Virus record (IMG/VR): IMGVR_UViG_3300045988_102491
Location: 1 to 41,781 of that record
DNA: 41,781 bases
Direction: 5' to 3' (one strand)
Source: a virus
Of this stretch, positions 3,381 to 22,410 are shown one piece after another. The stretch's first letter is position 1. The number at the start of each line of letters is the position of its first letter. The position numbers and the translations under genes were made by a program. Below the pieces are notes generated by a model that was not told the DNA's origin, did no database searches, and worked only from the letters and a program-made list of their open reading frames with translations.

Positions 3381-3797
3381 ATGAATGAATACGATACAAA
3401 AAAGATCTTTTCAAAAAATCTTAGTAGAGTTCTTTCTGAAAATGGAATGACTCAGGCTGAGTTAGCATCTGAAATGGGTGTTGCGGCATCTTCTGTGTCT
3501 GCTTGGTGCAATGGAGATAAAATGCCTAGAATGGATAAAATAGAGTGGATTTCCAAAAAATTTAATATTTCAAAATCAGAATTATTAGAAGAAAACCTTA
3601 TGCAACTGGTTCCTCCAGAGCAGAGCACCAGGGGCATGACCGAAGAGGAGCGGGAAGCGTATTACCGGGGTCTGCATAAAAAACAGCCCCCCGAAATGAT
3701 CGGAGGGCTGACAGAGGAAGATATGGAAATACTAAAGAGGTTTCGGAACGCATCTCCAAAAAAGAAAGAAGCAATCAGGATGCTTTTAGAGGAGTAA
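3381..3797 (+). CDS. CI-like XRE-family repressor
   Basis: 138 aa with N-terminal HTH (MTQAELASEMGVAASSVSAWCNGDKMP) and a C-terminal extension. It is divergent from a Cro-like gene. Confidence 0.8.
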   Translation: MNEYDTKKIFSKNLSRVLSENGMTQAELASEMGVAASSVSAWCNGDKMPRMDKIEWISKKFNISKSELLEENLMQLVPPEQSTRGMTEEEREAYYRGLHKKQPPEMIGGLTEEDMEILKRFRNASPKKKEAIRMLLEE

Positions 3798-4548: not shown

Positions 4549-5580
4549 TTGAAAGTTCCGGTCGCAAAAAAGCTCCCGTCCGGCTCCTGGCGGTGTCAGG
4601 TCATGGTGGACGGGCGGAGGGTGTCCGTAACAGGTCGGACGGAGAAAGAGGCAATCGCGGAGGCCATGCAGATCAAGGCCGGTATGCAGGAGGCAAAGAA
4701 GAGGGAAAAGCGCGTCACGGTAGACGAGGCCATACAGGAATACATGGACGCGGGGAGCAACGTGCTTTCCCCGGCAACTCTGAGAGGGTATGACATCATG
4801 CGGAGGAATCGCTTCCAAAGCCTGATGAAGCGGGATGTAAGGACGTTGACGCGCCTGGACATCCAGAAGGCGGTGAACTATGAGGCCGGGAAGGTGGCCC
4901 CGAAAACTGTCATAAATGCTTGGGGGCTTTTGAGGCCTGTGCTGAAGGACTACGGAATGGTGTTTGAGGGGATCAAGCTGCCTCAAAAGATCAAGAAAAA
5001 GAAAACCTATCTGTCTATGGACGAGATTACAAGGCTGATCGACGCGGCGGTGGGGGATGACTGCGAAATCCAGATAGTAATGGCCGTCTGGCTTGGCCTG
5101 AGACGGTCGGAAATCATGGGGCTATGCTGGGACTGCGTGGACCTGGAGCGCGGTACAATCGAGATCAGGAGAGCCATGGTGCCTGATAAAGAAAATAAGT
5201 GGGTCATAAAAGAGGGAGCAAAGAACGAGAGCTCTCAAAGAACACTGAAATGCCCGGCCTATATCATGGACAAGCTGAAAGAGATCTATCACGGACAGAC
5301 GGGAAGAGTATTCCAGGGATCGCCGGAGACGCTGCGGAAGCATGTCCACCAGGTGTGCAAGCTGGCCGGGATACAGGATACTACAGTTCACGGCCTGCGG
5401 CATGCAAACGCGGCTGTCATGGTGGCTCTGAACGTGGTAGACAAATACGCTATGGCTCGGAACGGCTGGACATCTGACTATACTTTCAAACAGGTGTATG
5501 CGTATGTGTTCCCGGAGGGAGCGGAGGAAACGGACGATCTGGTAAATTCTTTCTTTGAGAGCCGGATAGCAGGAAAATAA
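4549..5580 (+). CDS. int: Tyrosine site-specific integrase
   Basis: 343 aa with a TTG start and GGAGGTG RBS. Catalytic-type motifs are WLGLRRSEIMGL, HGLRHANA and a C-terminal FKQVYAYV. An N-terminal SAM-like/arm-binding style region is present. Confidence 0.9.
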   Translation: MKVPVAKKLPSGSWRCQVMVDGRRVSVTGRTEKEAIAEAMQIKAGMQEAKKREKRVTVDEAIQEYMDAGSNVLSPATLRGYDIMRRNRFQSLMKRDVRTLTRLDIQKAVNYEAGKVAPKTVINAWGLLRPVLKDYGMVFEGIKLPQKIKKKKTYLSMDEITRLIDAAVGDDCEIQIVMAVWLGLRRSEIMGLCWDCVDLERGTIEIRRAMVPDKENKWVIKEGAKNESSQRTLKCPAYIMDKLKEIYHGQTGRVFQGSPETLRKHVHQVCKLAGIQDTTVHGLRHANAAVMVALNVVDKYAMARNGWTSDYTFKQVYAYVFPEGAEETDDLVNSFFESRIAGK

Positions 5581-5655: not shown

Positions 5656-5678
5656 TTCAAATCCCTCCTTCTGCGCCA
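5656..5678 (+). other. tRNA 3'-end fragment (T-loop, T-stem 3' strand, acceptor 3' strand, discriminator, CCA); candidate attP core
   Basis: ttcaaat-ccctc-cttctgc-g-cca. The preceding bases (gacaa) cannot form the T-stem and no matching 5' acceptor is present, so this is only the 3' portion of a tRNA. Confidence 0.6.
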
Positions 5679-5680
5679 AA

Positions 5681-5718
5681 CCCCGGAACCTTGTATTGCA
5701 AGGCTTCCGGGGTTTTTT
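5681..5718 (+). terminator. Intrinsic terminator immediately after the tRNA fragment
   Basis: A 13-bp interrupted stem (ccccggaaccttg / caagg-c-ttccgggg) followed by tttttt. Confidence 0.75.
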
Positions 5719-5801: not shown

Positions 5802-5830
5802 AAATTGCACACGGAATTGCACATGAAAAA
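5802..5830. repeat. Right copy of ATTGCACA repeats; candidate arm-type sites
   Basis: aaattgcacacggaattgcacatgaaaaa holds two ATTGCACA copies 12 bp apart. Confidence 0.5.
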
Positions 5831-5856
5831 TCCCCCGTTTATGACGGGGGATTTTT
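5826..5856 (-). terminator. Intrinsic terminator after the 6753..5857 gene (bidirectional form)
   Basis: aaaaatcccccgt-ttatg-acgggggatttttt. It abuts the TGA stop at 5859..5857. Confidence 0.75.
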
Positions 5857-6753
5857 TCACTCTGCCCTGGTGATTGCTTTTGCCGCGTGAATGGCGTTGT
5901 CGGTCAGCTGCCGTTGCCATGCCCCCTGAGAAGGTGCCCACCGGAAACCGTGACTTTTGAGCGCCTGCTTTGTGTCGGCGTCTGGACAGTCGTCAAGGAC
6001 GATCTGGAGGCGGTTCAACTCGGCATTGATTACAACCTTTCCGCCGCCAAACTTCCAGCCTTCGGGAGCCGGGCTGTCCTGCCGCTTTTCCAGCTCTTCG
6101 ATTCGATCCCGAATGCGGCGGATATTGGCATTGTTGTTGGATAGCTGGTAGGACGGGTATCCGATGCGGCCGCAGAAGTCGGGGGAGCGGAGTTCCTTGA
6201 TATCGGAAGGGGAGTACCCCATCTCTGCAAGTTTGGCGTCCCCCTTTGCCTGGTCCTTCATGCGGATAGCGGAATTGGCTGCTTTCATTCGATTCTGGAG
6301 ACGTTCCAGGCTTTCCAGCTTCGCACGGAGCTTATTCAATGCGTTTGGATCGTCTCCGCTGATGCCTCCGGTGCCAACTGAACGGATTTTGTGGAGGATA
6401 CACTGAATCTCGTTCCATTCCTGCATGTTCCGGTCGGCTGCTGCGTTCTGGCGCTCTTTCTTCCGGACATTGAATCCGCTTCCGCCTGCAATCAGAATAG
6501 AGGGGCACATTGTGCCGATCCGGTTTGAATTGTTGATGTTGTCAGCAAGGCGGCGGGCGTAGGAGTCAAGAAGAGCGTCTATTTTATCATGATACATAGA
6601 ATCGACGCGGCGCTTCTGAGACTCTGCAATATCACAGGCCTTGTCAACCATGCGCTGATACTCTGCGGTTGCGCTGCCCTTCTTGTAGTCGCTCATGGAC
6701 ATCATGTCGTGAGACCGGCGGGCGAGTTCCTCGTTGATGCTGTAATACTTCAT
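5857..6753 (-). CDS. Hypothetical protein with C-terminal GFRW module (DUF3560-like?)
   Basis: Start placed at M26 (MKYYSINEEL) with AAAGGAGAAAG RBS. The C-terminus is LQIVLDDCPDADTKQALKSHGFRWAPSQGAWQRQ. The family name is from memory only. Confidence 0.5.
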   Translation of the reverse strand: MKYYSINEELARRSHDMMSMSDYKKGSATAEYQRMVDKACDIAESQKRRVDSMYHDKIDALLDSYARRLADNINNSNRIGTMCPSILIAGGSGFNVRKKERQNAAADRNMQEWNEIQCILHKIRSVGTGGISGDDPNALNKLRAKLESLERLQNRMKAANSAIRMKDQAKGDAKLAEMGYSPSDIKELRSPDFCGRIGYPSYQLSNNNANIRRIRDRIEELEKRQDSPAPEGWKFGGGKVVINAELNRLQIVLDDCPDADTKQALKSHGFRWAPSQGAWQRQLTDNAIHAAKAITRAE

Positions 6754-6817
6754 AGTTCTTTCTCCTTTTATCGTGGTTTTTGCCCTGCCATCATCAGGGC
6801 TTGGAGTGGTGTTCGGA

Positions 6818-7036
6818 TCAGTAAACAATCTTTACAGAAGAAGAAAACATGTTTTGACCGACTGGACCAAACACAGCGTATGCGGTTCCTGTTTGATAGT
6901 CATAAACGGCGGCGGCCTCTTCTTTTCCTACATAACATCCGGCGTCCGCCATGGCTTGGGACAACGTGTTAAAGTCCATTTTCTCGTCGGTTCCGCAGTC
7001 GTCGCTCCAGGTGACAACTTGGTATCTTCTTTGCAT
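6818..7036 (-). CDS. Hypothetical protein (72 aa)
   Basis: RBS GGAGG is present. It lies between the J-domain gene and the GFRW-module gene. Confidence 0.55.
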   Translation of the reverse strand: MQRRYQVVTWSDDCGTDEKMDFNTLSQAMADAGCYVGKEEAAAVYDYQTGTAYAVFGPVGQNMFSSSVKIVY

Positions 7037-7080
7037 TGTTATCCTCCATTGCCCTCGTGACCTCCGGGGCGGGCCGTTGA

Positions 7081-7941
7081 TTATGCGGTTTCGGTAATGG
7101 ATCTGAGGCCCTGCAAGTTGTCCTCAGTGTTCCGGTTGTACCAGCAGCCTTTTTTGCTGTGCCAGCGCCAACCGGCAGACTTCAATGCCGTGCGCACCTG
7201 CTCGGACGGCTTGCCGGGGAAATAGACCTCTACGCCGTTGAAATCCTGGTTGATCTCTACACGGATGGAACCGGTGCTTTCAGCGGGCTTCTTGCTGCTC
7301 TTCGGGGCCTCTACCTTCTTGGCCTTCCGGCTGACGGTGTAGGGCTTGTCCCATTTCCCGACGCCCAAACTATAATAGAAATTGACATCGAAATAGTCGA
7401 TCATGCTGTCGCAGTCGCTCCACCGGTAGGACTTGATGCAGTCGTTGACATCGATCATCACGGCGCGGGCCCAATCGGTCAGGATATCGTCACGCTCAAT
7501 GTAATAATAGTTGACATCGTGGCGGCTGCTGCCATCTTTCAGAGCCTCATAAGGGCCGGACACCATGGAGACAGAAATCTCGCTGCACATGCTTGCATAG
7601 TGGGTAGTAACGGAGAATTTGCAGTCAGGATAAGCCTTCTTGACATATGCGCGGATAGCGGCTGCAATGTCCTTTGTGCTGCGGCCCATCTCGTACCGGC
7701 TGCCCTTCCAGCCGTTGGAGGTGTAAAACTCGCTGCGGGTGCTTTCGGCGGTCTCGTGGGTGGGGGTCTCGGCCTTCTGGTTGTAAGCCAGCTTGTAGAC
7801 AGGGAAGAGGCGGTCGTACTCCGCGTTAATCTCCTGCATGGTGGCGGTGTCTCCGCCGACGTCCGGGTGGTGGATCATGGCCAGGTGGCGATAGGCCTTT
7901 TTCAGATCGTCCAGCGTTGCGATATTCTCAAAATACTTCAT
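7081..7941 (-). CDS. J-domain (DnaJ-like co-chaperone) protein with C-terminal GWRW module
   Basis: Start placed at M8 (MKYFENIATLDDLKKAYRHLAMIHHPDVGGD) with AGGAGG RBS. An HPD tripeptide sits in J-domain context. The C-terminus is VEVYFPGKPSEQVRTALKSAGWRWHSKKGCWYNR. Confidence 0.75.
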   Translation of the reverse strand: MKYFENIATLDDLKKAYRHLAMIHHPDVGGDTATMQEINAEYDRLFPVYKLAYNQKAETPTHETAESTRSEFYTSNGWKGSRYEMGRSTKDIAAAIRAYVKKAYPDCKFSVTTHYASMCSEISVSMVSGPYEALKDGSSRHDVNYYYIERDDILTDWARAVMIDVNDCIKSYRWSDCDSMIDYFDVNFYYSLGVGKWDKPYTVSRKAKKVEAPKSSKKPAESTGSIRVEINQDFNGVEVYFPGKPSEQVRTALKSAGWRWHSKKGCWYNRNTEDNLQGLRSITETA

Positions 7942-7992
7942 GGTGTTGTACCTCCTGGTCATGTGTCGTTGTCCCTTGCGGTGATTCTATGA

Positions 7993-8011
7993 TACACTGT
8001 TTAATAGTGTA
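7993..8011. promoter_or_regulatory. Palindrome TACACT-N7-AGTGTA in the divergent intergenic region
   Basis: tacactgtttaatagtgta, a perfect 6-bp-arm inverted repeat. Confidence 0.45.
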
Positions 8012-8061
8012 CGTCAATAAACAGTTTCAACAATAAGATCGATGGTGATTTGTGCAAGATA

Positions 8062-8080
8062 TACACTATGCAATAGTGCA
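8062..8080. promoter_or_regulatory. Second related palindrome (CACTAT-gca-ATAGTG)
   Basis: tacactatgcaatagtgca. It shares the TACACT...AGTG frame with 7993..8011. Confidence 0.45.
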
Positions 8081-8123: not shown

Positions 8124-8318
8124 ATGATAACTCAGGCCAAAAAGGAAGCGAATAAAGCGTGGGACAAGGCCAACATGACGAACCTTTGTTGTCGTGTACG
8201 CAAAGAGTACGCCGACCGGGTAAGAGCCTGCTGCGCAGCAAACGGGGACACGGTGAACTCGATTTTGAGGGAAGCACTGGACGCTTACCTGGAAGAGAAG
8301 GGAGAGGGTGGAAATTAA
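8124..8318 (+). CDS. Ribbon-helix-helix (Arc/CopG-like) DNA-binding protein
   Basis: Start placed at M25 (MITQAKKEANKAWDKANMTNLCCRVRKEYADRVRACCAANGDTVNSILREALDAYLEE) with GGAGGGGGG RBS. The beta-strand, helix, helix pattern is typical of RHH proteins. Confidence 0.55.
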   Translation: MITQAKKEANKAWDKANMTNLCCRVRKEYADRVRACCAANGDTVNSILREALDAYLEEKGEGGN

Positions 8319-8406
8319 AAAATCATAACTTTTTGAGGGACTTAAAAGGGACGACAATCACATAACGCAAAAGTAAAATTGACCAAAATAAAAAAATTTT
8401 CAAGTG

Positions 8407-8450
8407 CGGTATCTATTGCAACACAATGGATACCGGACTTTTTTATTTTT
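8407..8450 (+). terminator. Intrinsic terminator after the RHH gene
   Basis: cggtatc-t-attg / caat-g-gataccg stem (8407..8435) followed by cttttttatttttt. Confidence 0.7.
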
Positions 8451-8586
8451 TAAGTTTGTCACGTAACGCGGTTTTCCCTCGCACTACTACGATAGAAGCA
8501 GAAGATCACAGGTCAAGGCGCTTCCTGTTCTGCTTCAAATCCTCCCTTATCCCATCTCTATATCTCATTCTTCATCTCCAGAAAAA

Positions 8587-8628
8587 GAGGAGGGGGGCGG
8601 CGGGGGCGGCAAAATAGCCCCCCTCCTC
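8587..8628. other. Perfect 12-bp GC-rich inverted repeat with an 18-nt loop in the long non-coding tract before terS
   Basis: gaggaggggggc (8587..8598) pairs with gcccccctcctc (8617..8628). Confidence 0.8.
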
Positions 8629-8898
8629 CTCTCCCCACATGTCGCCCTTTGCCGCATGAGGCGGGAGGCGGCACCAGTCGAAAGACACAGGCCTGCGGCA
8701 AGCCTGCAAACAATCCGCAAAATACCCGGGGAGCCGGGTATATGTCGCGCGACCGTGTCGGCCTACCATGGGGCTCCGGGTGCGAAGCCTGGGTGCGGCA
8801 GTATCAAACCAGCCGTGCAGGTTTGTATGGGCGGGACTGAGGAGAACGGTGCTACTCTAGTTTTGAGGCGGCCATATAAAGGAAGGAGGCGGTCTGTT

Positions 8899-9414
8899 GT
8901 GGCGCTGACGGCGAAACAAGCGGCTTTTGTCAAAGAGTATCTGGTTGACCTGAACGCGACGCAGGCCGCTATCAGGGCGGGGTATAGCGAGAGATCGGCA
9001 TACAGCATAGGGCAAGAAAACCTGTGTAAACCTGAAATTCAGGCGGCGATACAGGAAGAGGTAAAAAAGCGAAGCGAAAGAACAGAGATCACTGCCGACA
9101 TGGTTCTGCGGGAATTTGCGAAACTTGCTTTTTTTGACCCCAGGAAGCTGTTTGACGAAAACGGAAACCCTAAAGACATATCTGATCTTGACGATAGCAC
9201 GGCAGCCGTAATTGCTGGGCTTGATGTGGTACAGGAGGTTGACCCGGACACAGGAGTAACCAGCTACACAAAGCGGTACAAATTGGCAAGCAAGCAGGCG
9301 GCGCTCGAAAGCCTTGGTAAGCACTTGGCAATGTTCACCGACAAGACCGAGAGCAAGGTTGACGGCGTGATGAAAATTGAGCTGTCCCCGGATCTGGAGG
9401 AGTTGGCGGAATGA
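8899..9414 (+). CDS. terS: Terminase small subunit
   Basis: LTAKQAAFVKEYLVDLNATQAAIRAGYSERSAYSIGQENLCKPEIQAAI is typical of Terminase_2-type TerS. The GTG at 8899 lies 9 nt after GGAAGGAGG. The track ORF opens at 8656 and an alternative ATG at 8827 lacks a good RBS. Confidence 0.8.
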   Translation: MALTAKQAAFVKEYLVDLNATQAAIRAGYSERSAYSIGQENLCKPEIQAAIQEEVKKRSERTEITADMVLREFAKLAFFDPRKLFDENGNPKDISDLDDSTAAVIAGLDVVQEVDPDTGVTSYTKRYKLASKQAALESLGKHLAMFTDKTESKVDGVMKIELSPDLEELAE

Positions 9415-10763
9415 CGATCCAGATTGCGCCGAACCAGAAACAGATTGAGTTCTTCCGGGCGAAAGCGCGGTTTGTGGCCTACGGCGGAGCCCGGGGCGGC
9501 GGCAAGAGCTGGTCAATCCGGCAGAAGGCCCGCTTGCTTGCGATCCGATGGGCAGGAATCAAAATACTGATTCTGCGCCACACTTTCCCCGAACTCCGGG
9601 AAAACCATATCTTGCCGCTAAAGCGGGAGCTATCCGGGATGGCAACATACCGTGAGAGCGACAAGGCGTTTACCTTTACAAATGGCTCCCGTATTGTGTT
9701 TGGATACTGCGCCACGGAGCACGATGTGGACCAGTACCAGGGGCAAGAGTACGACGTTATCTTTCTCGACGAGGCCACGCAGTTTACAGAGTATCAATAC
9801 ATTACGCTGGTGCCCTGTATCCGAGGCGTGAACGAGTTTCCCAAGCGCATGTATCTGACCTGTAACCCGGGCGGCGTGGGCCATGCCTGGGTTAAGCGGC
9901 TCTTTATCGACCGGGACTTTCACAGCGACGAGGACCCGGATGATTATATGTTTATCTCCGCCAAGGCAACGGACAACCCGGAGCTTATGCGGACAAACCC
10001 GGACTATATCAAGATGCTCAACAACCTTCCGCCTGGCCTGCGGGAGGCGTGGAGAGATGGCTCCTGGGATGTGTTTATCGGCCAGTACTTTACGGAGTGG
10101 GACAGAGAGGTCCATGTATGCGCCCCGTTTGAGATCCCTGACTGGTGGCGATGGTACATTACCATGGACTACGGCCTGGACATGCTGGCGGCCTACCTGA
10201 TTGCCGTTGACGATCATGGGCGGGCATATGTGGTACAAGAGGTATACGAGGGCCGGGACTGCGGGCAGGGAGCCGATGGCCTTATCATCAAGGACGCGGC
10301 AGAGCGAGTCAAGCAGCTTGCAGGCGGGCGAAATATCTATGAATATTTGGCACCGCCGGACCTATGGAACCGGCGGCAGGAGACCGGTAAGAGCGTGGCG
10401 GACATCTTTGCAGAGCACGGGGTATATCTGACCAAGACATCCAATGACCGCGTGGCCGGGTGGCTGGCGGTCAAAGAGTGGCTAAAGGTATACGAGGACG
10501 AGCAGGGAATACCAACGGCAAATCTGCGGATCTTTCCCAGGTGCTCCAATCTGATAAGATGCCTGCCACAGCTCCAGTACGACGAAAAGAGGCCGTCAGA
10601 CGTGGCAAACGAGCCGCACGAGCTGACACACGGACCGGACGCAATCCGGGGCTTTTGCGTGTACTGGACCACCAAGGGACAGCCGCCGAAGGCTCAGCCG
10701 AGGCCAAAGCTGACCGAAAAGTACAAACCGGTAAAGACAGGGAGGAGAAGGAATGTTCGGTAA
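9411..10763 (+). CDS. terL: Terminase large subunit
   Basis: 450 aa with Walker A-like YGGARGGGKS and a DE motif (VIFLDEATQF). It overlaps terS by 4 nt. Confidence 0.9.
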   Translation: MTIQIAPNQKQIEFFRAKARFVAYGGARGGGKSWSIRQKARLLAIRWAGIKILILRHTFPELRENHILPLKRELSGMATYRESDKAFTFTNGSRIVFGYCATEHDVDQYQGQEYDVIFLDEATQFTEYQYITLVPCIRGVNEFPKRMYLTCNPGGVGHAWVKRLFIDRDFHSDEDPDDYMFISAKATDNPELMRTNPDYIKMLNNLPPGLREAWRDGSWDVFIGQYFTEWDREVHVCAPFEIPDWWRWYITMDYGLDMLAAYLIAVDDHGRAYVVQEVYEGRDCGQGADGLIIKDAAERVKQLAGGRNIYEYLAPPDLWNRRQETGKSVADIFAEHGVYLTKTSNDRVAGWLAVKEWLKVYEDEQGIPTANLRIFPRCSNLIRCLPQLQYDEKRPSDVANEPHELTHGPDAIRGFCVYWTTKGQPPKAQPRPKLTEKYKPVKTGRRRNVR

Positions 10764-12687
10764 AAAACGGAAAAAGAAAGGGCAAGGCCGCTTTACCGGG
10801 TTCGACTACTCCACCCGGGAAATGAGAGAGCAGACGGTAAGCGAACTGTATGCCAAGGCGAAAAACGCCCGGGCGGCAGTCGAAAACCGATGGGTGCAGT
10901 ACAACGACTATTACAATTTCCTGCACAATGCCACGGCGGAGGTCCGGGAGGCGGTGGAGGAGAGCGGGATCTGCTGGGACCCTGCGGTGGTTCCTGACCC
11001 TTATATTCAGGTGGAGAGCCAGGTGGACCCGGTAGTGCCTGAGCCGGAGTTCCGGGGCCGGGACGATGACCAGGACAGCGTTAAGGCAAAGCAGAGAGAA
11101 TACGCCGTGAAGTTCGTCTGCCAAAATAACCGGCTGGACGATCTCAACACCAGCAATGAGCGCCGCCTGGTGAAGCTGGGGGACGCGTTCTGGAAGGTCT
11201 ATTGGGATGACCAGATGCCGTGCGGGGATCAGATGGGCGATATCCGGATCAGGGATGTACCGGTAGAGGCAATCTATGCGGACCCGACTGCCGGTTCTGA
11301 CGGTATCCAGGCCGGGCAGTTTGTCGATTATGTGTACCGCCTGCACAAGGTGGTATTTTGGCAGATGTACGGCGACGCGCTCAAAAGAGAGGGCCTCGAA
11401 CTGGAGGACGTGCTGGAGAGCGAGTATACCGTGCGCGGCGGTATCTTTGACATGGAGAGCACCATTGAGGAGTCCGACGACACGGTGCAGGTGATCGAGC
11501 ACTGGTTCCGCCATCCGGAGGACGAGGACGGAGCGGAGGCTGGAGACATCGGGTGCAGCATCCAGGCGGGCGGCCATGAAGTAAAGTACATCCCAAAGTA
11601 CTGGCAGCGCACCGGGCTGCAAAACAAGCGATTCCCATTTGTCCATTACTGGCGGGTGCGGAACGAGAACGGTTTTTATAACTGCTCCGAGATCCAGCCA
11701 ATCCTCCCGATGGTGGATGCGGCGGACCGGGAGCTTGCAAACGCGCTGCTCAATGACGCGTTTACCGCAAACGACATCATCTTGCAGGAGGAAAACGCCC
11801 TGGCAGACGGTGAGGAGATGACCAACACGCCGGGCGCGGTGGTCAAGACAAAGCCGAACGCCATTGGAAAGGTGGCCCGCCTGGGAGGGCTCCAGAGCGG
11901 GAAGAACAGCCTCCCAATGATTGAGTGGCTGCTCAGCCAGATCCAGCGCACCAACCGGAACTATGAGACCAACCAGGGCAAGGCCTCCGGCGTCAAGACG
12001 GCCACGGAGCTCTCCATGATGCGGGCCGACGTGGACAGCCAGATGGAGATTAAGAAGGCGGACCGAAACGGCGGTTTTGTCCGGCTCTATGAGCTGATTG
12101 ACTGGTCTGTGCTGGAGTTCTACGAGGACCAGCGGGAAATCTACATTGGAGCGAAAAAGCCGGATGAAAAGCCGGTTTCCTTTACACTGATAACCGACGC
12201 CTTTGACACCGGACGCCCGGCCATCACGGACCCGATCACCGGAGAAATGGTCCAGGAGTCCACGCATTACTGGCCCATGGTGGATGTCACGGTAAACGCC
12301 GGTGACGGTATCATCCGCAGCAAGGCGGCGACGCTCCAGGCCCTCCAGAATCTGGTTGGCGTACAGGTCACACAGGACAATTACAAGCTCATGTCCGCCA
12401 TGGTCGAGGTGCTGGACATCCCGCAGAAACAGGAGATCACGCAGGAGTGGCAAGACCGATTCAGCCCGGCGGTTCCGCCGGAAGTCATCCAGGCGTTGGG
12501 GCAGGACCCGCAGCTCCTCCAGTTGGTCACGCAGGCGGTCGCCGCAAAGCAGATGGCCCAGGGCGCACAGGGTATGCCCGGGGCTCCGATGCAGCAGGGC
12601 GTGGCGACTCAGATGCCGGGCGGCCTGCCGAGCTCCGCACAATTTGATTTGATGGGAGGCGGCGCGAGTGGTGTGCCCGCGATGTAA
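10753..12687 (+). CDS. Portal protein
   Basis: 644 aa, immediately after TerL, with GGGAGGAG RBS. Size and position are typical. It has a Q/G/M-rich C-terminal tail. Confidence 0.75.
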   Translation: MFGKKRKKKGQGRFTGFDYSTREMREQTVSELYAKAKNARAAVENRWVQYNDYYNFLHNATAEVREAVEESGICWDPAVVPDPYIQVESQVDPVVPEPEFRGRDDDQDSVKAKQREYAVKFVCQNNRLDDLNTSNERRLVKLGDAFWKVYWDDQMPCGDQMGDIRIRDVPVEAIYADPTAGSDGIQAGQFVDYVYRLHKVVFWQMYGDALKREGLELEDVLESEYTVRGGIFDMESTIEESDDTVQVIEHWFRHPEDEDGAEAGDIGCSIQAGGHEVKYIPKYWQRTGLQNKRFPFVHYWRVRNENGFYNCSEIQPILPMVDAADRELANALLNDAFTANDIILQEENALADGEEMTNTPGAVVKTKPNAIGKVARLGGLQSGKNSLPMIEWLLSQIQRTNRNYETNQGKASGVKTATELSMMRADVDSQMEIKKADRNGGFVRLYELIDWSVLEFYEDQREIYIGAKKPDEKPVSFTLITDAFDTGRPAITDPITGEMVQESTHYWPMVDVTVNAGDGIIRSKAATLQALQNLVGVQVTQDNYKLMSAMVEVLDIPQKQEITQEWQDRFSPAVPPEVIQALGQDPQLLQLVTQAVAAKQMAQGAQGMPGAPMQQGVATQMPGGLPSSAQFDLMGGGASGVPAM

Positions 12688-12790
12688 GATCGATGCCAAG
12701 GCGACGAGAGACAAAGAGGGGAAAACGGTGCTGACGTGCCGAAATCCCAAGTGTGAGTTCTACAAGCGAATCCTGAAAACTTTGAAATAG
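12668..12790 (+). CDS. Candidate 40-aa zinc-ribbon mini-protein overlapping the portal stop
   Basis: GTG lies 8 nt after GGGAGG. My translation is (M)VCPRCKIDAKATRDKEGKTVLTCRNPKCEFYKRILKTLK, with a CxxC...CxxxxC pattern. It is below the ORF-track size cutoff. Confidence 0.35.
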   Translation: MVCPRCKIDAKATRDKEGKTVLTCRNPKCEFYKRILKTLK

Positions 12791-12829
12791 AATCGCGGCC
12801 GGGGCGGATAACGGCGAAAGGAGCACAGC

Positions 12830-13648
12830 ATGGACGAGTTTGAAAACCAGGTGACCGAAGAGACCGAGCTGGACACCGCTGGTCGTGAGAGTGTCGTGGA
12901 CTCTCAGGAAGAAGATGCGGCCAACACCGAACAGGACCCCGGCGCAGGGGAGAATGCTGACCCCGCAAGTCAGCGCCAGGACGGCAAGCAGTCGCACCAG
13001 GACAACGCCGCTGCCAGGGCGGCACGCATCCGCGCGGAGCAGGAGACCGCAGCGCGGCTCCAGAAGCAGTATGACGAGGAAGTCGCTGGCATGGGGATCA
13101 TCAATCCCTACACCGGAAAGCCGTTCAGCGGCTTCAAGGACTTCCTGGAGTACGGCAAGCGATACCGCGAGGACAAGCTGGAGGAAGAGGCCAAGAAGCA
13201 GGGCAAGACCGTCGAGGAGCTGCGTGAGGAGGAGGAAAACAAGTCCTTCCTTGCCCGCAAGCGAAAAGAGGAGAAAGAGCGGCAGGAGGCCATGAAGGCG
13301 CTGGAACAGCAGAAAGCCTTTGTTGCCGCCGATCTGGACTCCTTTGTGAAAAAGTTCCCCGGCGTGGACCCCGGCAAGCTGGAACAGAACGCCAAGTTCC
13401 GGAAGTTCTCCAAGGGCCGCCTGTACAAGGAGCCCCTCTCGGAGATCTATCAGGACTATCTGGACGTGGTGGGCGACGCGGAGCGGTCCGCCGTGGAGAA
13501 GGCTGCGGCCAGATCTGCGAGGAGCACCGGCGGCGGCCAGAGCGGCGGGGGAGACCTGCTGACGGCAAAGCAGCGGGCGGAGCTGGAGGAATGGAATGCT
13601 GCCAACCCCTCCATGAAGATGACCGCGAAAGAATTTTTGAGTATGTGA
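12830..13648 (+). CDS. Scaffolding protein (putative)
   Basis: 272 aa, highly charged with coiled-coil character (EEEAKKQGKTVEELREEEENKSFLARKRKEEKERQEAMKALEQQK). It lies between the portal and capsid genes. Confidence 0.65.
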   Translation: MDEFENQVTEETELDTAGRESVVDSQEEDAANTEQDPGAGENADPASQRQDGKQSHQDNAAARAARIRAEQETAARLQKQYDEEVAGMGIINPYTGKPFSGFKDFLEYGKRYREDKLEEEAKKQGKTVEELREEEENKSFLARKRKEEKERQEAMKALEQQKAFVAADLDSFVKKFPGVDPGKLEQNAKFRKFSKGRLYKEPLSEIYQDYLDVVGDAERSAVEKAAARSARSTGGGQSGGGDLLTAKQRAELEEWNAANPSMKMTAKEFLSM

Positions 13649-13660
13649 AAGGAGTCATAT

Positions 13661-14299
13661 ATGCATCAGGTAATGGATGTTTCCGGCGCTGTCCTGCACT
13701 CTGAGCGGGAATACGACATTGCGGCGGATACTGCAATCAATGAGGGCCAGGTGGTAAAGCTGGTTGACGGCCTTGTGGTGGCTGCTGCGGCTGGCGAGAC
13801 CGGCGCGGTCCTGGGCATTTCCGCCGAGAGCCATCCCGGCACGGAGGACGCGCTCAATCCCCGGGCCAACGGAAAGAAGATCATCGTCAGGGATGCCCCC
13901 GGCGCCGTGCTTGCTTGCCCCGCCCCCGTCATTGCGGCGCTGACCGGCGGTAATGCCACCACCGTGAAGTTTACCGGCGCGGACGGTGTTGGCGCGGACG
14001 CCTTCAAGGGCGGCTATATTCGGGACAAGACCGGCCATTTGCGCCGGATCACCGGCTCCACCGACACCAGCGGCGCGATTGACCTCACCGTTGAGAGCGG
14101 CGCTGTGGTGGGAGAGGGTGAGACCTTTATCCTGTATCCCCCCATCGGTTTCTCCAAGGGTAATCTGTCCTCCGACGGCACCAAGATCGTCGTGACTGCG
14201 ACTGCCGAGCTGCCCCTGGCTGTGATTGGCCGGGACGAGACCACGAATGAGATTTGGCTGGTGGCCAAGAAGCACGCCCTCGGCCCCGTGACCGCGTAA
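13661..14299 (+). CDS. Capsid-associated protein (decoration/auxiliary head protein?)
   Basis: 212 aa, Ala/Gly/Val-rich, directly upstream of the major capsid gene, with AAAGGAG RBS. The function is inferred from position only. Confidence 0.4.
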   Translation: MHQVMDVSGAVLHSEREYDIAADTAINEGQVVKLVDGLVVAAAAGETGAVLGISAESHPGTEDALNPRANGKKIIVRDAPGAVLACPAPVIAALTGGNATTVKFTGADGVGADAFKGGYIRDKTGHLRRITGSTDTSGAIDLTVESGAVVGEGETFILYPPIGFSKGNLSSDGTKIVVTATAELPLAVIGRDETTNEIWLVAKKHALGPVTA

Positions 14300-14311
14300 G
14301 GAGGTATCAAT

Positions 14312-15274
14312 ATGGGCACGAACGTAAACTCCACCGCCTGGAAGGGCGATAACTATAAGTTTGTAGGCAAGGCCTTTGACTATGCCTACAAGAACCGTAT
14401 GAACAAGTTCCTCTCCATCATGGGCGAGGTCAACTCTAAGTCCATCGACTACGAGATGAACGGAACCGGCGGCTACGGTGAGCTGTCCCTGTACGATGGC
14501 TCCAACCTGAACATGGGAGAGCAGAAGCGCGGCTTCCGCACCATCATCACGCCCCAGGAATACCAGAAGTCCATCGCCGTCGGCTATAAGCAGGCCAAGG
14601 TGGACAAGCTGGGCGAGACCCGCAAGGTCGGCACCCGCCTGGGCGACTCCGCCGCCATGACCGTCTATCTGCGCTGCCTGCGGATGTTCGGCAACGCCTT
14701 CAACCCCAGATACCTGGGCGGCGACGGCCAGCCCTGGGCCAGCACCAAGCACCCTGTGGCCTCCAAGGCGGACCAGAATCGCCGCCGCATTCCCGATCCC
14801 GATTCCGGTACTTACTCCAACCTCATCACCGACGAGCTGAGCGTGGACGCCATCACCAAGGCCCAGTCCATGGCGGGCCGCTTCCTGACTCCTGACGGCC
14901 TGCCCTTCATGTGCGAGATGAACACCGTGCTGGTCTCCCCCGAGCTGGAGGCCACCGCAAAGAAGCTGTTCGGCGAGAACAACAAGCTGCGGCCCCTCCG
15001 CTACCAGGAGGACAACTCCAATGCGGCCAACCCCATCTATGAGGACATGACCTACATGGTGGTGGGCGGCGGCAACGACGGTTTCGGCGCGAAGCAGTGG
15101 GCGGTGTGTGACCGCACCCTCATGCAGGAGGTGTGCAACATCGTATACCTCACCCGGCCCCAGGTGATGAACACCGAGCTGGATAACCCGCTGATCGACC
15201 TGTACACCGCCTACGTGGACTTTGACACCGGCTGGGGCGACGCGCGGCCCATCATCTTCTCCAATCCCAAGTAA
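14312..15274 (+). CDS. Major capsid protein
   Basis: 320 aa with AAGGAGG RBS, followed by a strong terminator. Position and size are typical. It resembles Mu gpT-type / HK97-fold capsid proteins by eye. Confidence 0.75.
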   Translation: MGTNVNSTAWKGDNYKFVGKAFDYAYKNRMNKFLSIMGEVNSKSIDYEMNGTGGYGELSLYDGSNLNMGEQKRGFRTIITPQEYQKSIAVGYKQAKVDKLGETRKVGTRLGDSAAMTVYLRCLRMFGNAFNPRYLGGDGQPWASTKHPVASKADQNRRRIPDPDSGTYSNLITDELSVDAITKAQSMAGRFLTPDGLPFMCEMNTVLVSPELEATAKKLFGENNKLRPLRYQEDNSNAANPIYEDMTYMVVGGGNDGFGAKQWAVCDRTLMQEVCNIVYLTRPQVMNTELDNPLIDLYTAYVDFDTGWGDARPIIFSNPK

Positions 15275-15280
15275 TCCAAA

Positions 15281-15313
15281 GGGGCGGGCAAACGCCCGCC
15301 CCTATTTGTTTTT
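15281..15313 (+). terminator. Intrinsic terminator/attenuator after the capsid gene
   Basis: ggggcgggc-aaac-gcccgcccc followed by tatttgttttt. Confidence 0.8.
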
Positions 15314-15329
15314 GATTTGAGGTGACGCC

Positions 15330-15920
15330 ATGACACTGGGCGAAGGAAAGCGAAAGGCCCTTATGCTGATGGATGAATACTCCTCCAGCGGAGTCCTGAC
15401 CGTAGACGAGGACCTGGAGCTTAGAATGGCGGATTTTTTTGACCTTGCGCAAAAAAATATCGCTGCATACAAGAAAATCATACGGTCCTTTGTCCCAGAA
15501 AAGCCGGAGGCGGATGACTCCCCGACGTCTGGCCTGATCGCCTGTCCCGCTCCGGATAACTTTTCCCAGCCGTTCCGCGTTTGGCGTGACGGCAAAGTTA
15601 CCCGGGCCTATGCATGGACCGGAAAGGCAATCCTTCTTCCGGAGGATGTGATCGGGAGCGTCACCGTGGAGTATTTTGCCACACCGGCCACCATTCCGCA
15701 GGACGCTCCGGATGACTATGAATTTGAGGTTTCGGACGATGCGGCGGCCTGTATGCCGTACTTTGTGGCGGCACAGCAGCTGGTAGTGGACCTTGTAGTT
15801 GACTTCCGGCCATTGCTGGATCTCTATGACCGAATGGTTTCCTCTCTTGATTTGTCTCTCCCGAGCGGTGGTGGAGGCGTCCGGCAGTCCTTTTATTCCT
15901 GCGGTGGGAGGAAACGCTGA
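15330..15920 (+). CDS. Virion structural protein (head-tail adaptor/connector candidate)
   Basis: 196 aa, positioned after the capsid gene. No family recognised. Confidence 0.4.
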   Translation: MTLGEGKRKALMLMDEYSSSGVLTVDEDLELRMADFFDLAQKNIAAYKKIIRSFVPEKPEADDSPTSGLIACPAPDNFSQPFRVWRDGKVTRAYAWTGKAILLPEDVIGSVTVEYFATPATIPQDAPDDYEFEVSDDAAACMPYFVAAQQLVVDLVVDFRPLLDLYDRMVSSLDLSLPSGGGGVRQSFYSCGGRKR

Positions 15921-17797
15921 TGGCAAGACGATCTGGCGTGGGCATCATGACCACCACGTACAGCAAGTTCCGGGGCGTGGACTTCACCAATGACCCGTCC
16001 CTGGTGGAGCCGTACCGGTCTCCGCTGGCTATCAACATGCTGTCGGACAGCGGCGGGATGCCGGAAAAGCGACTTGGGTGGAGAACGCTCCAGACAGTAG
16101 AAAAGCCGGTGAATGGACTTTTCTCTGCTGTCATTAAGCAGAAAACGCACTTCATTGTACACGGTGGAACAAAGATTTATGAGTGGTTTGACGGACCGGA
16201 CGCCGGTGAGCCGAAGGTCCTGAAAGACGGCGTGACCAATGCAAAGTCTGTGGCGATCACCATGCAGGAAAAGCTCTGGATTCTCACCGGTGGAGAGTAC
16301 CTGGTGTACGACGGAGAGGCCGTCAAAAGCGTATCTGAGGACGCCTATGTACCTACAACCACTCTGGGCGCTGACCCGTCCGGAGCTGGCGGAACCATCT
16401 TTGAGAGCCCCAACCTAATCCAGCCGAAGCGAAAAAACGAGTTTATCCCGGACGGAGAGACGAAAGTATATCAGCTTGACAGCACGGATATTGACTCCGA
16501 TGCTGTCATGGCCACCGTTTGGGGGGAAGAGAAAAAAGAGGGGACGGACTTCACCGTAGACCGTGCAAAAGGCACGGTGACGTTCAACACCGCCCCGGAA
16601 AAGCCGTCCGTCGGCAAAGAGGGAGCTGTCATCATCACTTTCTCAAAAACAGTGGAGGATTATGCACAAAAGGTCTATAAGTGCCGTATCGTTACATCCT
16701 ACGGTGTCGGAACATCGGACCGTGTCGTGATCTCCGGCAACCCCGATTTCCCGAACCGAGATTGGACCAGCGGTCTGAATGACCCATCCTATTTTCCGGA
16801 CCTAGGCTATAACCTGGTTGGAATCGAGGCCACGGCCATCATGGGATACCACCGGATCGGGGAGTATCTTGCCGTCATCAAGGAGGACAACGGGCAGGAC
16901 TCCACCGTATTCATCCGCAGCGCCAGCCTGGACAGCGACGGAAATGCGGTTTTCAAGACCAGCCAGTCTATCGCTGGCGTCGGAGCGGTATCCATGGCCG
17001 GATTTGCAAGCATCCTGGATGAGCAGCTTTTCCTCTCCGGGACCGGCGTATATGCCATCACGTCCAGCTATCTGACGGCGGAGCAGATCGTGCAGAATCG
17101 ATCTTACTACATTGACCCGAAGCTCACGGCGGAGCCTGGTCTGGAAAGCGCACAGGCGGTGAGCTGGAACGGCTCCATGCTGGTGTCCGTAAACGGTCAT
17201 GTCTACATCATGGACGGCCGTCAGAACAAGAGCTATCGCCCGCAGAGCCAGGGCGATTTCGTGTACGAGTGCTACTACTGGGAGAACGTCCCGGCGGTCT
17301 GCTGGCTCAACTATAAGACAGGTGCAAGCGAGACACTGTATTTCGGAACGGATGACGGAAGGATTTGCAGATTCAATTCCGACATTGAAACCATGGAGCG
17401 CTATGCGGACGACGGTGCCGCTATCTTTGCCTGCTGGGCCACAAAGGCGGATGACGATGACGATGTTACCGTGCTGAAAACCATGATTAAAAAGGGGAAC
17501 AGCGTCACCATCAAGCCGTATCTCCGGTCCAGCGCAAAAATTTGCTTCCGAACAGAGCGGGACGCTGTGGACTGGCAGGCCACCTATGGAACCATGGATA
17601 TTTTCGACTGGGAGGATATCGACTTCTCCCGTTTTACCTTCAACGCCAACGACGCGCCGCAGGAGATCCTGTTCAATACAAAGGTGAAAAAATACAAACG
17701 GCTCCAGATCATCATCAAGAATGACGCTGTAAACGAGGGATTCGGCATATACGGCGTCACGAAGCACTATGTCAACGGAAACTTTGCGAAGAGATAG
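15920..17797 (+). CDS. Large virion structural protein (tail/nozzle candidate)
   Basis: 625 aa. The start overlaps the previous stop (TGATG), and an alternative start is M10 at 15947 (MTTTYSKFRGVDF). It has beta-rich sequence character. Confidence 0.5.
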   Translation: MARRSGVGIMTTTYSKFRGVDFTNDPSLVEPYRSPLAINMLSDSGGMPEKRLGWRTLQTVEKPVNGLFSAVIKQKTHFIVHGGTKIYEWFDGPDAGEPKVLKDGVTNAKSVAITMQEKLWILTGGEYLVYDGEAVKSVSEDAYVPTTTLGADPSGAGGTIFESPNLIQPKRKNEFIPDGETKVYQLDSTDIDSDAVMATVWGEEKKEGTDFTVDRAKGTVTFNTAPEKPSVGKEGAVIITFSKTVEDYAQKVYKCRIVTSYGVGTSDRVVISGNPDFPNRDWTSGLNDPSYFPDLGYNLVGIEATAIMGYHRIGEYLAVIKEDNGQDSTVFIRSASLDSDGNAVFKTSQSIAGVGAVSMAGFASILDEQLFLSGTGVYAITSSYLTAEQIVQNRSYYIDPKLTAEPGLESAQAVSWNGSMLVSVNGHVYIMDGRQNKSYRPQSQGDFVYECYYWENVPAVCWLNYKTGASETLYFGTDDGRICRFNSDIETMERYADDGAAIFACWATKADDDDDVTVLKTMIKKGNSVTIKPYLRSSAKICFRTERDAVDWQATYGTMDIFDWEDIDFSRFTFNANDAPQEILFNTKVKKYKRLQIIIKNDAVNEGFGIYGVTKHYVNGNFAKR

Positions 17798-17808
17798 GAG
17801 GCCACTGA

Positions 17809-19086
17809 ATGGCATTTGATCGAATTACCCTGGACGAGATTTCCCAAAATGGTGTGGTCTCCGCCCCTGATAAGCTGACCGGAACCGCTGCGGATAACAA
17901 GGCTATTTTCGATAAACTAATCAAGAATATTGTCGCCCGGGAGTTCAACAAGCTCTTGGACGATCTGGAGGCCGCAACGGGCGCTGCATCCATTGGGGCA
18001 GCTCCATTTGACGGCGTGGAAGGTAAGAACATTCAGGACCAGCTCAAAAATGTGCAGTCCAATGTTTCCACCTCTTTTGACGGCACGACGATCAACGGTC
18101 ATAAGATCCCTGGAACTGTGGTTATCACGAAAGGCGATGTCGGTCTCGGAAATGTTGACAACACCAGCGACATGGAAAAGCCGGTATCTTCTCCGCAGCG
18201 GAGCTATGTGGAGTCTGTGGCGAGAGACTTTATTCTAGGCCAGCTCCCGGTTCCGCTTCCTATCACACAGGGCGGCACGAACGCGGACACACCGCAGGAG
18301 GCGCTTGCAAACCTGGGGGCGGGGGTGCGGCCGAACCTGTTGGACAATGGGGATTTCCGCGCAGGGCATGTTGTGAACCAGCGAGGACAGACATCCATTA
18401 GCAAACCAGACATTTTGAACGACAGGTGGAGAATTTATAGGTATGCGTCAGGGACGGCAACATTAACAGACAATGGGATAAACCTGACCGGAGATTTTGA
18501 TTTCGGACAAACCATCGAAAGCGGCCGATTGCCAGATACACCAAATATTCCGGTCACGATATCCGCACTATTCGGTGATGGGACATTCGTATCGAAAACG
18601 TCAGTACTGAACAATAATGGGGAATTGGAAACAATCGCCGCCCCTGTAAGTTCCAATGTTCACTTGGCATTTATTCGGAATTGGAATGAGGGCGGGAAAA
18701 ACATCGATCTGTTGTTTTTCTGGATTTCAAATGGAAGCATCACCCCTGTTGCTGCAAAACTGGAAACGGGCTCGACCCAGACCCTCGCTTACCATAAAAG
18801 CGATGGAAAGTGGGAACTCCTCCCGCAGCCGGAGAGTGATTATGCGACGCAGCTTAGGAGGTGCAAACGGTACTATGAATCTTCCACGTCCTCTTGGACA
18901 ATTCCGGCCAACCTGACAATGATGGTCCCGTTTGAGGTGGAAAAAAGAATTGTACCAACCGTCACTATCGAAAATGTATCAGGTGGTAGCGCAATATTTG
19001 ATTATGTTGGGCCAGGATGTTTCCGGGTAATCAATCCATCCCAGCAGTCGCACGACTTCCGCTGGCAAGCGTCTGCGGAACTGTGA
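17809..19086 (+). CDS. Tail fibre / receptor-binding protein
   Basis: Motifs GDVGLGNVDNTSDMEKPVSSPQ and PITQGGTNADTPQEALANLGA are common in phage tail fibre proteins. Confidence 0.75.
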   Translation: MAFDRITLDEISQNGVVSAPDKLTGTAADNKAIFDKLIKNIVAREFNKLLDDLEAATGAASIGAAPFDGVEGKNIQDQLKNVQSNVSTSFDGTTINGHKIPGTVVITKGDVGLGNVDNTSDMEKPVSSPQRSYVESVARDFILGQLPVPLPITQGGTNADTPQEALANLGAGVRPNLLDNGDFRAGHVVNQRGQTSISKPDILNDRWRIYRYASGTATLTDNGINLTGDFDFGQTIESGRLPDTPNIPVTISALFGDGTFVSKTSVLNNNGELETIAAPVSSNVHLAFIRNWNEGGKNIDLLFFWISNGSITPVAAKLETGSTQTLAYHKSDGKWELLPQPESDYATQLRRCKRYYESSTSSWTIPANLTMMVPFEVEKRIVPTVTIENVSGGSAIFDYVGPGCFRVINPSQQSHDFRWQASAEL

Positions 19087-19094
19087 GGGGAAAT

Positions 19095-19436
19095 ATGAAT
19101 AAAAAAAACTACATCGTATACGCCCGCACAGACGGGCGGGATCGAATCCTTGAAGTCAATTCCAGCGCTTTTTTGACAGATGCGGCTGGCTGGACATCCA
19201 TTGACGAGGGGCTGGGAGACAAATACCACCACGCCCAGGGGCACTATTTCCACAAACCCCTATACACAGAGGACGGCATCCCCCGCTACAAACTGGAGGA
19301 TGGACGGGCTGTGGAGCGCACGGAGGCGGAAATCGAGGCCGACCGGGCGGCGGTCCCTCCGGCCCGGCCCTCTGCGCTGGAGCAGCTCCGGGCGGACGTT
19401 GATTTCCTGGCGATCATGCAGGGGGTGGAGTTATGA
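19095..19436 (+). CDS. Small tail-fibre-associated protein (XkdW-like position)
   Basis: Start placed at the internal ATG 19095 (MNKKNYIVYARTDGRDRILEV...). It sits between the fibre and XkdX-like genes. Confidence 0.45.
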   Translation: MNKKNYIVYARTDGRDRILEVNSSAFLTDAAGWTSIDEGLGDKYHHAQGHYFHKPLYTEDGIPRYKLEDGRAVERTEAEIEADRAAVPPARPSALEQLRADVDFLAIMQGVEL

Positions 19437-19567
19437 ATGTGGAAGAGCTGGCCCGGAAGTATTATCCCACGCTCTGGGACAAGCAGCGCATCGAGGCGCT
19501 GGTGGAGGCGGGGCGTCTGAGCCGGGAAGCGGCTGACACAATCATGGAAGGAGAGAAGAAAGAGTGA
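19433..19567 (+). CDS. xkdX: XkdX-family small phage protein
   Basis: My translation is MNVEELARKYYPTLWDKQRIEALVEAGRLSREAADTIMEGEKKE (44 aa). This matches the XkdX pattern (KYY..W....v...V..G.it.e....I). It shows ATGA-type overlaps with both neighbours and is below the ORF-track cutoff. Confidence 0.6.
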   Translation: MNVEELARKYYPTLWDKQRIEALVEAGRLSREAADTIMEGEKKE

Positions 19568-20910: not shown

Positions 20911-20917
20911 GGGGCTT

Positions 20918-22408: not shown

Positions 22409-22410
22409 TC

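Follow-up and report, generated by a model that had tools for sequence, protein, structure and literature searches.

A J-domain-LPD29 protein that shares its C-terminal module with a DUF3560-like partner, encoded in a cassette near the predicted attP of a phage

Why should a phage encode a J-domain protein of its own, and to what might such a protein bring the host chaperone DnaK? The question is raised by virus record IMGVR_UViG_3300045988_102491, analysed here over its whole length of 41,781 nt (the window), in which a minus-strand cassette at 7941..5857 comprises three open reading frames (ORFs): 7941..7081 (286 aa), 7036..6818 (72 aa) and 6753..5857 (298 aa). We show that the first encodes a minimal J-domain joined to an LPD29 region and a 60-aa C-terminal module (the C-module), that the last encodes a DUF3560-like protein ending in a homologous module, and that in other viruses counterparts of these two proteins occur fused in one polypeptide. 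The locus appears to be a self-contained accessory cassette, bounded by terminators, proximal to the phage attachment site (attP) and built from the domain repertoire of polyvalent proteins. We suggest tentatively, and at somewhat less than an even chance, that the cassette is regulated, serves establishment or counter-defence, and directs host DnaK to a target that the C-module determines. The family is widespread and its domains are already annotated in public databases as DnaJ, LPD29 and DUF3560; what is new here is the definition and reach of the C-module, the evidence from fusions, the plasmid proteins that combine a J-domain with the module, and the Aca-like control. The part of the full-text literature that was searched, in which LPD29, DUF3560 and DUF5710 rarely appear, yielded no description of a J-domain-LPD29 protein.

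The J-domain-LPD29 protein and the C-module

An initial annotation of this DNA had read a J-domain with an HPD motif at the start of ORF 7941..7081 (-), and both the peptide strings and the ORF coordinates that it quoted are present in the sequence. In particular, Pfam DnaJ (PF00226) matches residues 8-43 with 30.9 bits (cut-off 27.8), and the J-domain (residues 1-56; 7774..7941, -) is 41% identical to that of Escherichia coli DnaJ, with KKAYRHLAM aligned to RKAYKRLAM and helix II, KKAYRHLAMIHHPD, aligned to RKAYKRLAMKYHPD of the E. coli protein. When a profile of 74 homologues was compared with PDB sequences, 51 chains were retrieved at E values up to 1, essentially all of them J-domain proteins and including E. 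coli DnaJ and SV40 T antigens (best match, E 2.3e-5). The HPD motif (H25-P26-D27) is invariant in all 74 aligned homologues and in all 80 viral loci that were examined out of at least 413 confirmed with the family profile, which points to purifying selection on the Hsp70-activating motif; the loop takes the form HPD(V/R/K/N)GGD in 78 of the 80. An AlphaFold2 (AF2) model of the 286-aa protein (predicted local distance difference test score, pLDDT, 83) places HPD between helix II (residues 10-24) and helix III (residues 32-56), with helix IV continuous with helix III, and a Foldseek comparison of the full model with PDB gave a probability of 0.96 to one J-domain chain, at TM-scores that are low because the query is multi-domain. 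Helix II, the HPD motif and helix III are the DnaK-contacting elements of the DnaK-DnaJ complex, and their joint presence makes a DnaK-directed function plausible. We therefore consider the J-domain to be genuine in a minimal form, and engagement of DnaK by it to be plausible.

The central part of the protein (residues ~60-205; 7327..7764, -) is a predicted alpha/beta region with the acidic motif SDCDxMIDYFDVNF. The initial annotation had suggested a polyvalent-protein-associated domain here, rightly, for Pfam LPD29 (PF18847) matches residues 88-173 with 52.4 bits (cut-off 27, E 9e-14). Its invariant residues are R97, F109, S110, S171, D176, D178, D182, Y183 and F184, and neither sequence profile nor fold found any match for the region in PDB. 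LPD29 was defined by Iyer, Burroughs, Anand, de Souza and Aravind (2017; PMC5512222), who linked it with LPD30. The J-domain together with LPD29 forms the constant core of the family (80 of 80 viral loci), and the C-module is part of the same protein in 39 of the 80. We found at least 530 protein clusters of this architecture in addition to the at least 413 viral loci, so that this combination is an exception to the earlier statement that phages seldom encode J-domain proteins.

The C-module itself (residues 224-284; 7090..7272, -) is predicted to form a beta-hairpin, a helix, a second beta-hairpin and a second helix around the core LKxxG(W/F/Y)RWxxxxxxW. The relationship of this module to the end of ORF 6753..5857, first noticed in the initial annotation, amounts to 30% identity over 60 aa by BLASTP (E 5e-9) and survives profile-profile alignment of the two families (hhalign probability 98.75%, E 1.4e-16). 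Modelled alone, the module reaches an AF2 pLDDT of 91; Foldseek against PDB returned nothing better than E 0.13, and no Pfam model covers the module at gathering score. A profile search of 1.84 billion representatives identified 8,600 representative carrier proteins (4,459 at E <= 1e-10), among them proteins of 1,000-3,100 aa that often hold two or three copies. Carrier architectures include ArdC-N + MPTase-PolyVal + DUF2958 + DUF3560 + module, methyltransferase + module + DdrB-ParB, LPD1 + module and LPD29 + module, and fold matches of the module in BFVD extend to phage DUF3560 and LPD29 proteins, helicases, a topoisomerase, HepA-related proteins and DUF5710 proteins. Considering these architectures and the range of fold matches, we suggest that the C-module is an independent mobile adaptor on DNA-transaction and counter-defence proteins of mobile elements; its occurrence on helicases, topoisomerases, methylases, ParB and ArdC-type proteins and short J-proteins agrees with the targeting-type domain envisaged in the initial annotation.

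The module is probably a distant relative of DUF5710 (PF18974), not a member of it: DUF5710 matched 13 of 33 module sequences below threshold (best E 5e-5), and the window's own module scored 12.8 bits against a cut-off of 26.5. DUF5710, like DUF3560 (PF12083) a domain of unknown function, is itself fused to Rep_3 plasmid initiators. A HARP or SMARCAL1-like fold is retained as no more than a lead, as it appeared only in two low-ranked BFVD matches (one HepA-related, the other a 73-aa 'SWI/SNF-related' protein) without PDB-fold or profile support. Separately, the module core LKSAGWRWHSKKGCWY (7150-7215, -) resembles a segment of the NOT-box of eukaryotic CNOT3, ALKKQSWRFHTKYMMWF, and Pfam NOT2_3_5_C matched 17 of the 33 module sequences below threshold, which could reflect chance or an ancient relationship.

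Two known viral systems offer parallels. Rki (ORF057w) of RB43 was the first phage J-domain protein to be characterised and is the one such case to date; it binds DnaK and stabilises sigma-32 (PMC3486835). J-domains have otherwise been noted sporadically in jumbo phages. Rki resembles the protein described here in its phage origin and in its N-terminal, HPD-containing J-domain, which in Rki engages host DnaK; it differs in belonging to a T4-like lytic E. coli myovirus, in its unrelated C-terminal part, in acting on sigma-32 and in having no LPD29, module or plasmid relatives. The large and small T antigens of polyomaviruses join an N-terminal J-domain, with a short HPDKGGD loop (HPDxGGD here), to target-binding modules. 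T antigen takes host complexes apart using Hsc70. These are proteins of a eukaryotic virus whose homology is limited to the J-domain, and the parallel is a mechanistic analogy only.

Partner protein, fusions and plasmid relatives

The last ORF of the cassette (6753..5857, -; 298 aa) ends in its own C-module (residues ~236-295, nt 5869-6048). Its Pfam DUF3560 score of 22.1 bits falls short of the cut-off (27.2); a public protein of identical sequence bears the name DUF3560 and a precomputed PF12083 match, and plasmid proteins that are 38-50% identical to the ORF reach 141 bits to DUF3560. Additionally, it matches phrog_19458 at E 1e-132 and has more than 5,600 homologues, and it probably belongs to the wider DUF3560 family. 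The name 'primase', which PHROGs gives to this DUF3560-like family, was rejected: Pfam, NCBIfam and PDB profile searches found no Toprim/DnaG, AEP or zinc-binding primase domain, and the label traces to an unverified automatic RAST annotation of phage FP_Toutatis. This propagating annotation is corrected here and should not spread further.

That the J-LPD29 and DUF3560-like proteins act together is indicated by distant phages, MT835477.1 and four IMG/VR contigs, in which a single ORF of 712-769 aa consists of J-LPD29, a linker, a full DUF3560-like region (32% identity to ORF 6753..5857, E 4e-41) and one module. One module is apparently enough when the two are joined, whereas the separate proteins carry one each, as would be expected if the module were a docking domain common to both. 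The linker has no detectable relation to the module or to the 72-aa ORF, and the fusion is thus not a simple read-through of the three genes. In MT835477.1, a 382-aa ORF of TnpB/OrfB type (9925-11073, by inspection of its translation) lies ~1.8 kb downstream of the fusion gene.

The middle ORF (6818..7036, -) has a good ribosome-binding site and is lineage-specific, with no match in Pfam, PHROG, NCBIfam or PADLOC, none by tblastn in phage records, and a single homologue in one 99%-identical phage (L134). Megablast of the locus against phage records likewise retrieved nothing. The exact layout of three genes, with the 72-aa ORF and an adjacent DUF3560 partner, occurs only in that 99%-identical phage. 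Of the three-gene operon directed towards attP in the initial annotation, the ORFs and terminator are confirmed, but the operon is not a conserved unit. In relative L005, the 295-aa gene that follows the J gene was considered as a relative of DUF3560 and proved not to be one. Elsewhere, the DUF3560-like gene of Faecalibacterium phage FP_Toutatis belongs to an opposite-strand island flanked by the antiterminator and the small terminase gene, and is preceded there by the gene of a protein that matches ArdC-N below threshold. In Bacillus phage SPR, the gene of a module + LPD29 protein has a helicase-like gene on one side and that of a Dam + DUF4942 methylase on the other.

The same domains are found on plasmids. 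Homologues of DUF3560 + module occur on 425 plasmids (242 of them conjugative), annotated as DUF3560 or inside ArdC ORFs, and the N-terminus of the J-protein matches 394 plasmid records, 204 from Acinetobacter and 172 from Enterococcus. The plasmid J-proteins examined, annotated as 'J domain-containing' or 'DnaJ domain-containing', have 164-172 aa and consist of a J-domain (35-40% identity for WP_015060286.1 of Acinetobacter and WP_002368092.1 of Enterococcus) and a C-module-like domain with the core LKxxGxxWxxxKKxWY; unlike the phage protein they are without LPD29, and they reside on conjugative or mobilisable plasmids. Similar 170-aa J + module proteins are also found in large phages. On a pCF10-like plasmid of Enterococcus faecalis (NZ_CP119529.1, 6001-11687), the J + module gene follows that of the coupling protein, in a block with ssb, a thermonuclease, a RelB/YafQ toxin-antitoxin pair, PcfM, the anti-CRISPR AcrIIA9 and PcfJ; by its gene content, this neighbourhood appears to be a leading-region-like establishment or anti-defence island. 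In Acinetobacter, the J + module gene lies between rep and par, just downstream of rep.

Polyvalent proteins, giant proteins that phages and plasmids use for establishment and counter-defence, are the closest known context for these domains. LPD29 is among the domains that define them (PMC5512222), and in our searches true polyvalent proteins also contained DUF3560 and the C-module, together with ArdC-N, MPTase metallopeptidase, methylases and DdrB-ParB. Here, by contrast, the domains are spread over small proteins or gathered in a three-domain 'mini-polyvalent' protein: J-domain, LPD29 and module form one polypeptide, to which the 712-769-aa relatives add DUF3560, and with its three domains the 286-aa protein is near the lower limit of the 2-15 domains published for the class. 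The J-domain is mentioned nowhere in the polyvalent-protein paper, in which solo LPD domains are predicted to help early invasion (Iyer et al., 2017; PMC5512222). The J gene lies outside the late structural operon and on the opposite strand, which argues weakly against packaging of its product.

Control, position and possible role of the cassette

Each of the three ORFs is preceded by a GGAGG-type ribosome-binding site, and the gaps between them measure 44 and 64 bp. Transcription would start at a sigma-70-like promoter, TTGACG-17-TATCAT (7989..8017, -; -35 at 8017-8012, -10 at 7994-7989), which agrees with the consensus at 10 of 12 positions and lies ~48 nt upstream of the J start codon. It would end at an intrinsic terminator (5826..5856, -) that begins directly after the stop codon of ORF 6753..5857; its strength, remarked on initially, is evident from its RNA fold (-26.1 kcal/mol, z -7.2, with 0 of 200 shuffles equally stable), and a simple terminator scan missed it because its A/U runs pair. 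On the upstream side, a bidirectional terminator-like hairpin (8384..8458; 12-bp stem 8407-8435, A and T run flanks) marks the boundary between the ribbon-helix-helix (RHH) gene described below and the terminase genes, and is predicted to insulate the cassette from the terminase/late operon.

The two related palindromes reported upstream of the cassette are the only occurrences of TACACT-N7-AGTG in the 41.8-kb window. Operator-like palindrome O1 (TACACT-N7-AGTGTA, 7993..8011) lies between the -35 and -10 elements of the cassette promoter, and O2 (TACACT-N7-AGTGCA, 8062..8080) lies upstream of a divergent gene (8124..8318, +) that encodes 64 aa from ATG 8124, a likelier start, behind the ribosome-binding site GGAGGGGGG, than position 8052, from which the ORF is open. 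This gene is real; its description as RHH, also taken from the initial annotation, corresponds to Pfam RHH_1 and Antitox_RHH scores of 17-18 bits, under cut-off. Its product is a putative repressor of the cassette, and in 17 of the 80 viral loci the J gene has an RHH homologue as a neighbour. The RHH regulator Aca14 binds inverted repeats overlapping the -10 element of its own and of neighbouring anti-defence operons, and LPD29 genes have been found in aca4 operons (bioRxiv 10.64898/2026.07.27.740549). The present layout resembles acr-aca operons in that a small RHH regulator gene adjoins the cargo, one inverted repeat overlaps the cargo promoter (at the -10 element or spacer) and would be bound by the putative regulator, and a second precedes the regulator gene; it differs in that the cargo includes no known Acr and in that the regulator is divergent and not the last gene of the operon. 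Identification of the cassette as a defence or toxin-antitoxin system was rejected, PADLOC giving nothing better than E 0.036 and the RHH matches to antitoxin-like models being weak and sub-threshold.

The cassette lies 146 bp from a predicted attP core (5656..5680, +). ARAGORN assigned this core to the 3' end (T-loop to CCA plus 2 nt) of an Oscillospiraceae tRNA-Ser(GCU), with identity over 25 nt to the Pseudoflavonifractor gene and over the first 23 bases to those of Flavonifractor and Intestinimonas. The 23-mer was found in at least 120 genome contigs, mainly from Oscillospiraceae, Ruminococcaceae and Flavonifractor, while a 31-mer that takes in the hairpin downstream had no match. The phage is temperate, and its host appears to be an Oscillospiraceae gut bacterium; in an integrated prophage no transcription unit at that end would lie further out than the cassette, which would read outward. 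This supports the prophage-end position first proposed, and in two relatives (L007 and L010) the J gene is indeed at a prophage edge adjoining host genes. Directly 3' of the attP core, a hairpin with a T-run (5681-5718) would terminate transcription of the integrase gene and, in the prophage, would once more place a terminator behind the tRNA-Ser gene reconstituted there.

How might such a cassette act? We propose that the sigma-70-like promoter would fire on entry or induction, and that the RHH protein, as it accumulates, would bind both TACACT-N7-AGTG palindromes and shut the cassette off in the manner of Aca regulators. Meanwhile, the C-module may dock the J-LPD29 and DUF3560 proteins on one target, which is most probably DNA, or else a machine bound to the DNA of the element as it enters or replicates, where the N-terminal J-domain with its HPD would trigger ATP hydrolysis by host DnaK. 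DnaK could then clamp, remodel or remove a protein recognised by LPD29 or DUF3560, and the element would thereby establish itself or evade host interference.

Several observations weigh against this establishment or counter-defence reading. Only the helix II-HPD-helix III core of the four-helix J-domain fold expected from the initial annotation is recovered by AF2; helix I is not predicted, residues 1-9 being non-helical. The RHH assignment is sub-threshold and binding of the palindromes by its product is putative. Profile searches of the J-LPD29, DUF3560-like and module families against PDB sequences returned J-domains only, and with LPD29, DUF3560 and the module lacking any analogue of solved structure or fold, no biochemical activity can be assigned to them. 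In this phage the cassette is not adjacent to known anti-defence genes, the PADLOC search of its proteins was empty, and the neighbours of the J gene in 29 lineages are mostly unannotated, with methylases and PBECR3 as single occurrences only. Moreover, the site at a prophage end and the cassette's own promoter fit expression in the lysogen equally well.

This last point leads to the first alternative, a moron for lysogenic conversion or superinfection exclusion, expressed from the resident prophage and using DnaK against incoming phages or plasmids or on host physiology. The attP-proximal position, outward transcription, own promoter and terminators on both sides would suit such a gene, as would the relatives at prophage edges beside host genes. 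Among 131 neighbouring proteins surveyed in the 29 lineages, moreover, only integrase recurs, as one of the genes closest to the J gene in no more than 4 of 29 (a count of four integrase-family matches among neighbour ORFs), and the G+C content of the cassette (55%) equals that of the genome (54%) with no compositional anomaly, as expected of a long-resident gene. However, the same domain set is typical of the entry regions of conjugative plasmids and of polyvalent proteins delivered with invading DNA, other phages carry the gene not at a prophage end but in early regions or between late regulator and terminase genes, and a repressor-like RHH gene next door, together with an operator inside the promoter, points to expression that is transient and not constitutive. 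We consider the moron unlikely.

We are similarly doubtful of a helper function in replication or DNA processing, in which the J-domain would bring DnaK to a replication or recombination complex, the module would bind DNA or replisome parts and DUF3560 would be a DNA-transaction protein. The release of lambda P from DnaB and the monomerisation of P1 and F Rep proteins require DnaK and DnaJ. In agreement, the module or its DUF5710 relative is carried by Rep_3 initiators, helicases, a topoisomerase and a Pol III epsilon-like protein, the Acinetobacter J + module gene adjoins par as well as rep, the Enterococcus copy adjoins ssb, and PHROGs labels the DUF3560-like family 'primase'. That label is the unverified RAST annotation mentioned above, however, and no primase, Toprim, AEP or nuclease domain was detectable with Pfam, NCBIfam or PDB profile; further, the cassette is transcribed separately from the replication genes and lies more than 20 kb away from them, and the gene is accessory and shifts its genome position among relatives.

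Finally, global titration of DnaK or manipulation of the heat-shock response in the manner of Rki, with the J-domain alone mattering and the other domains incidental, has the binding of DnaK by Rki and the canonical J-domain found here in its favour but is very improbable, given the strict fusion to LPD29 (80 of 80) and the recurrent link to the module, which argue for a targeted function, the absence of similarity to Rki outside the J-domain, and the fact that heat-shock control in Clostridia is mainly through HrcA/GroEL and not through a DnaK-sigma-32 circuit.

If DnaK recruitment by the establishment or counter-defence cassette were to apply beyond this phage, hijacking of Hsp70, through adaptor-tethered DnaK or through the J-domain as an in-cis refolding tag, would be a widespread and hitherto unrecognised establishment strategy of bacterial mobile elements; we raise this generalisation with considerable reservation. 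A J-domain tethered by the C-module, as a small adaptor for DNA or the replisome, would make DnaK an ATP-driven engine that strips or unfolds host defence or nucleoid proteins on incoming DNA, a counterpart of T antigen; alternatively, the J-domain might refold in cis effectors that enter the cell unfolded, whether by a phage tail or by type IV secretion. Gut phages, Enterococcus pheromone plasmids and Acinetobacter resistance plasmids would then share one logic, and, were the J-domain functional and the module a targeting device, Hsp70 networks would be linked with phage and plasmid counter-defence, fields that have barely met. A change of HPD to QPD would offer a handle on LPD29, DUF3560 and the 60-aa module, three large families of unknown function. 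The conjugative plasmids on which the plasmid versions reside, Acinetobacter NDM/OXA-type backbones and Enterococcus pheromone plasmids, are of clinical relevance and also genetically tractable, so that the hypothesis of DnaK-aided establishment is directly testable.

The remainder of the genome and neighbouring genes

The window is a complete, circularly assembled phage genome of ~41.7 kb, as its first 88 bp (1-88) are repeated exactly and in direct orientation at 41694-41781, the overlap of the circular assembly. On the integrase side of the cassette lie two consecutive ORFs of anti-repressors of the Ant/Bro type (770-2316, -; their listed coordinates overlap), which adjoin a helix-turn-helix repressor (3381-3797, +) and together with it mark the lysogeny switch, and a tyrosine integrase (4549-5580, +). 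Beyond the RHH gene, which ends at 8318, the small and large terminase and structural genes occupy 8656-27840 (+), and the replication genes about 28-41 kb (-), with a DnaC-like loader at 36.3-37.1 kb in that arm. A large terminase gene upstream of the J gene and on the opposite strand was found in 15 of the 80 viral loci.

Among the neighbours of the J gene in IMG/VR loci, a Cas12f1-like TNB domain was seen once, and in two phage lineages an ORF of ~2,100 aa lies immediately downstream of, and convergent with, the J-LPD29 gene (L137:9006-15362 and L148:9258-15470 (-)). Within the early/replication arm of the window, 33876-34721 (-) encodes a radical-SAM-like protein (phrog_9298) that may act in the modification of DNA or nucleotides. 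A perfect 12-nt G/C-rich inverted repeat, GAGGAGGGGGGC / GCCCCCCTCCTC (8587-8598 / 8617-8628), closely precedes the small-terminase ORF and could be a regulatory or pac-related element.

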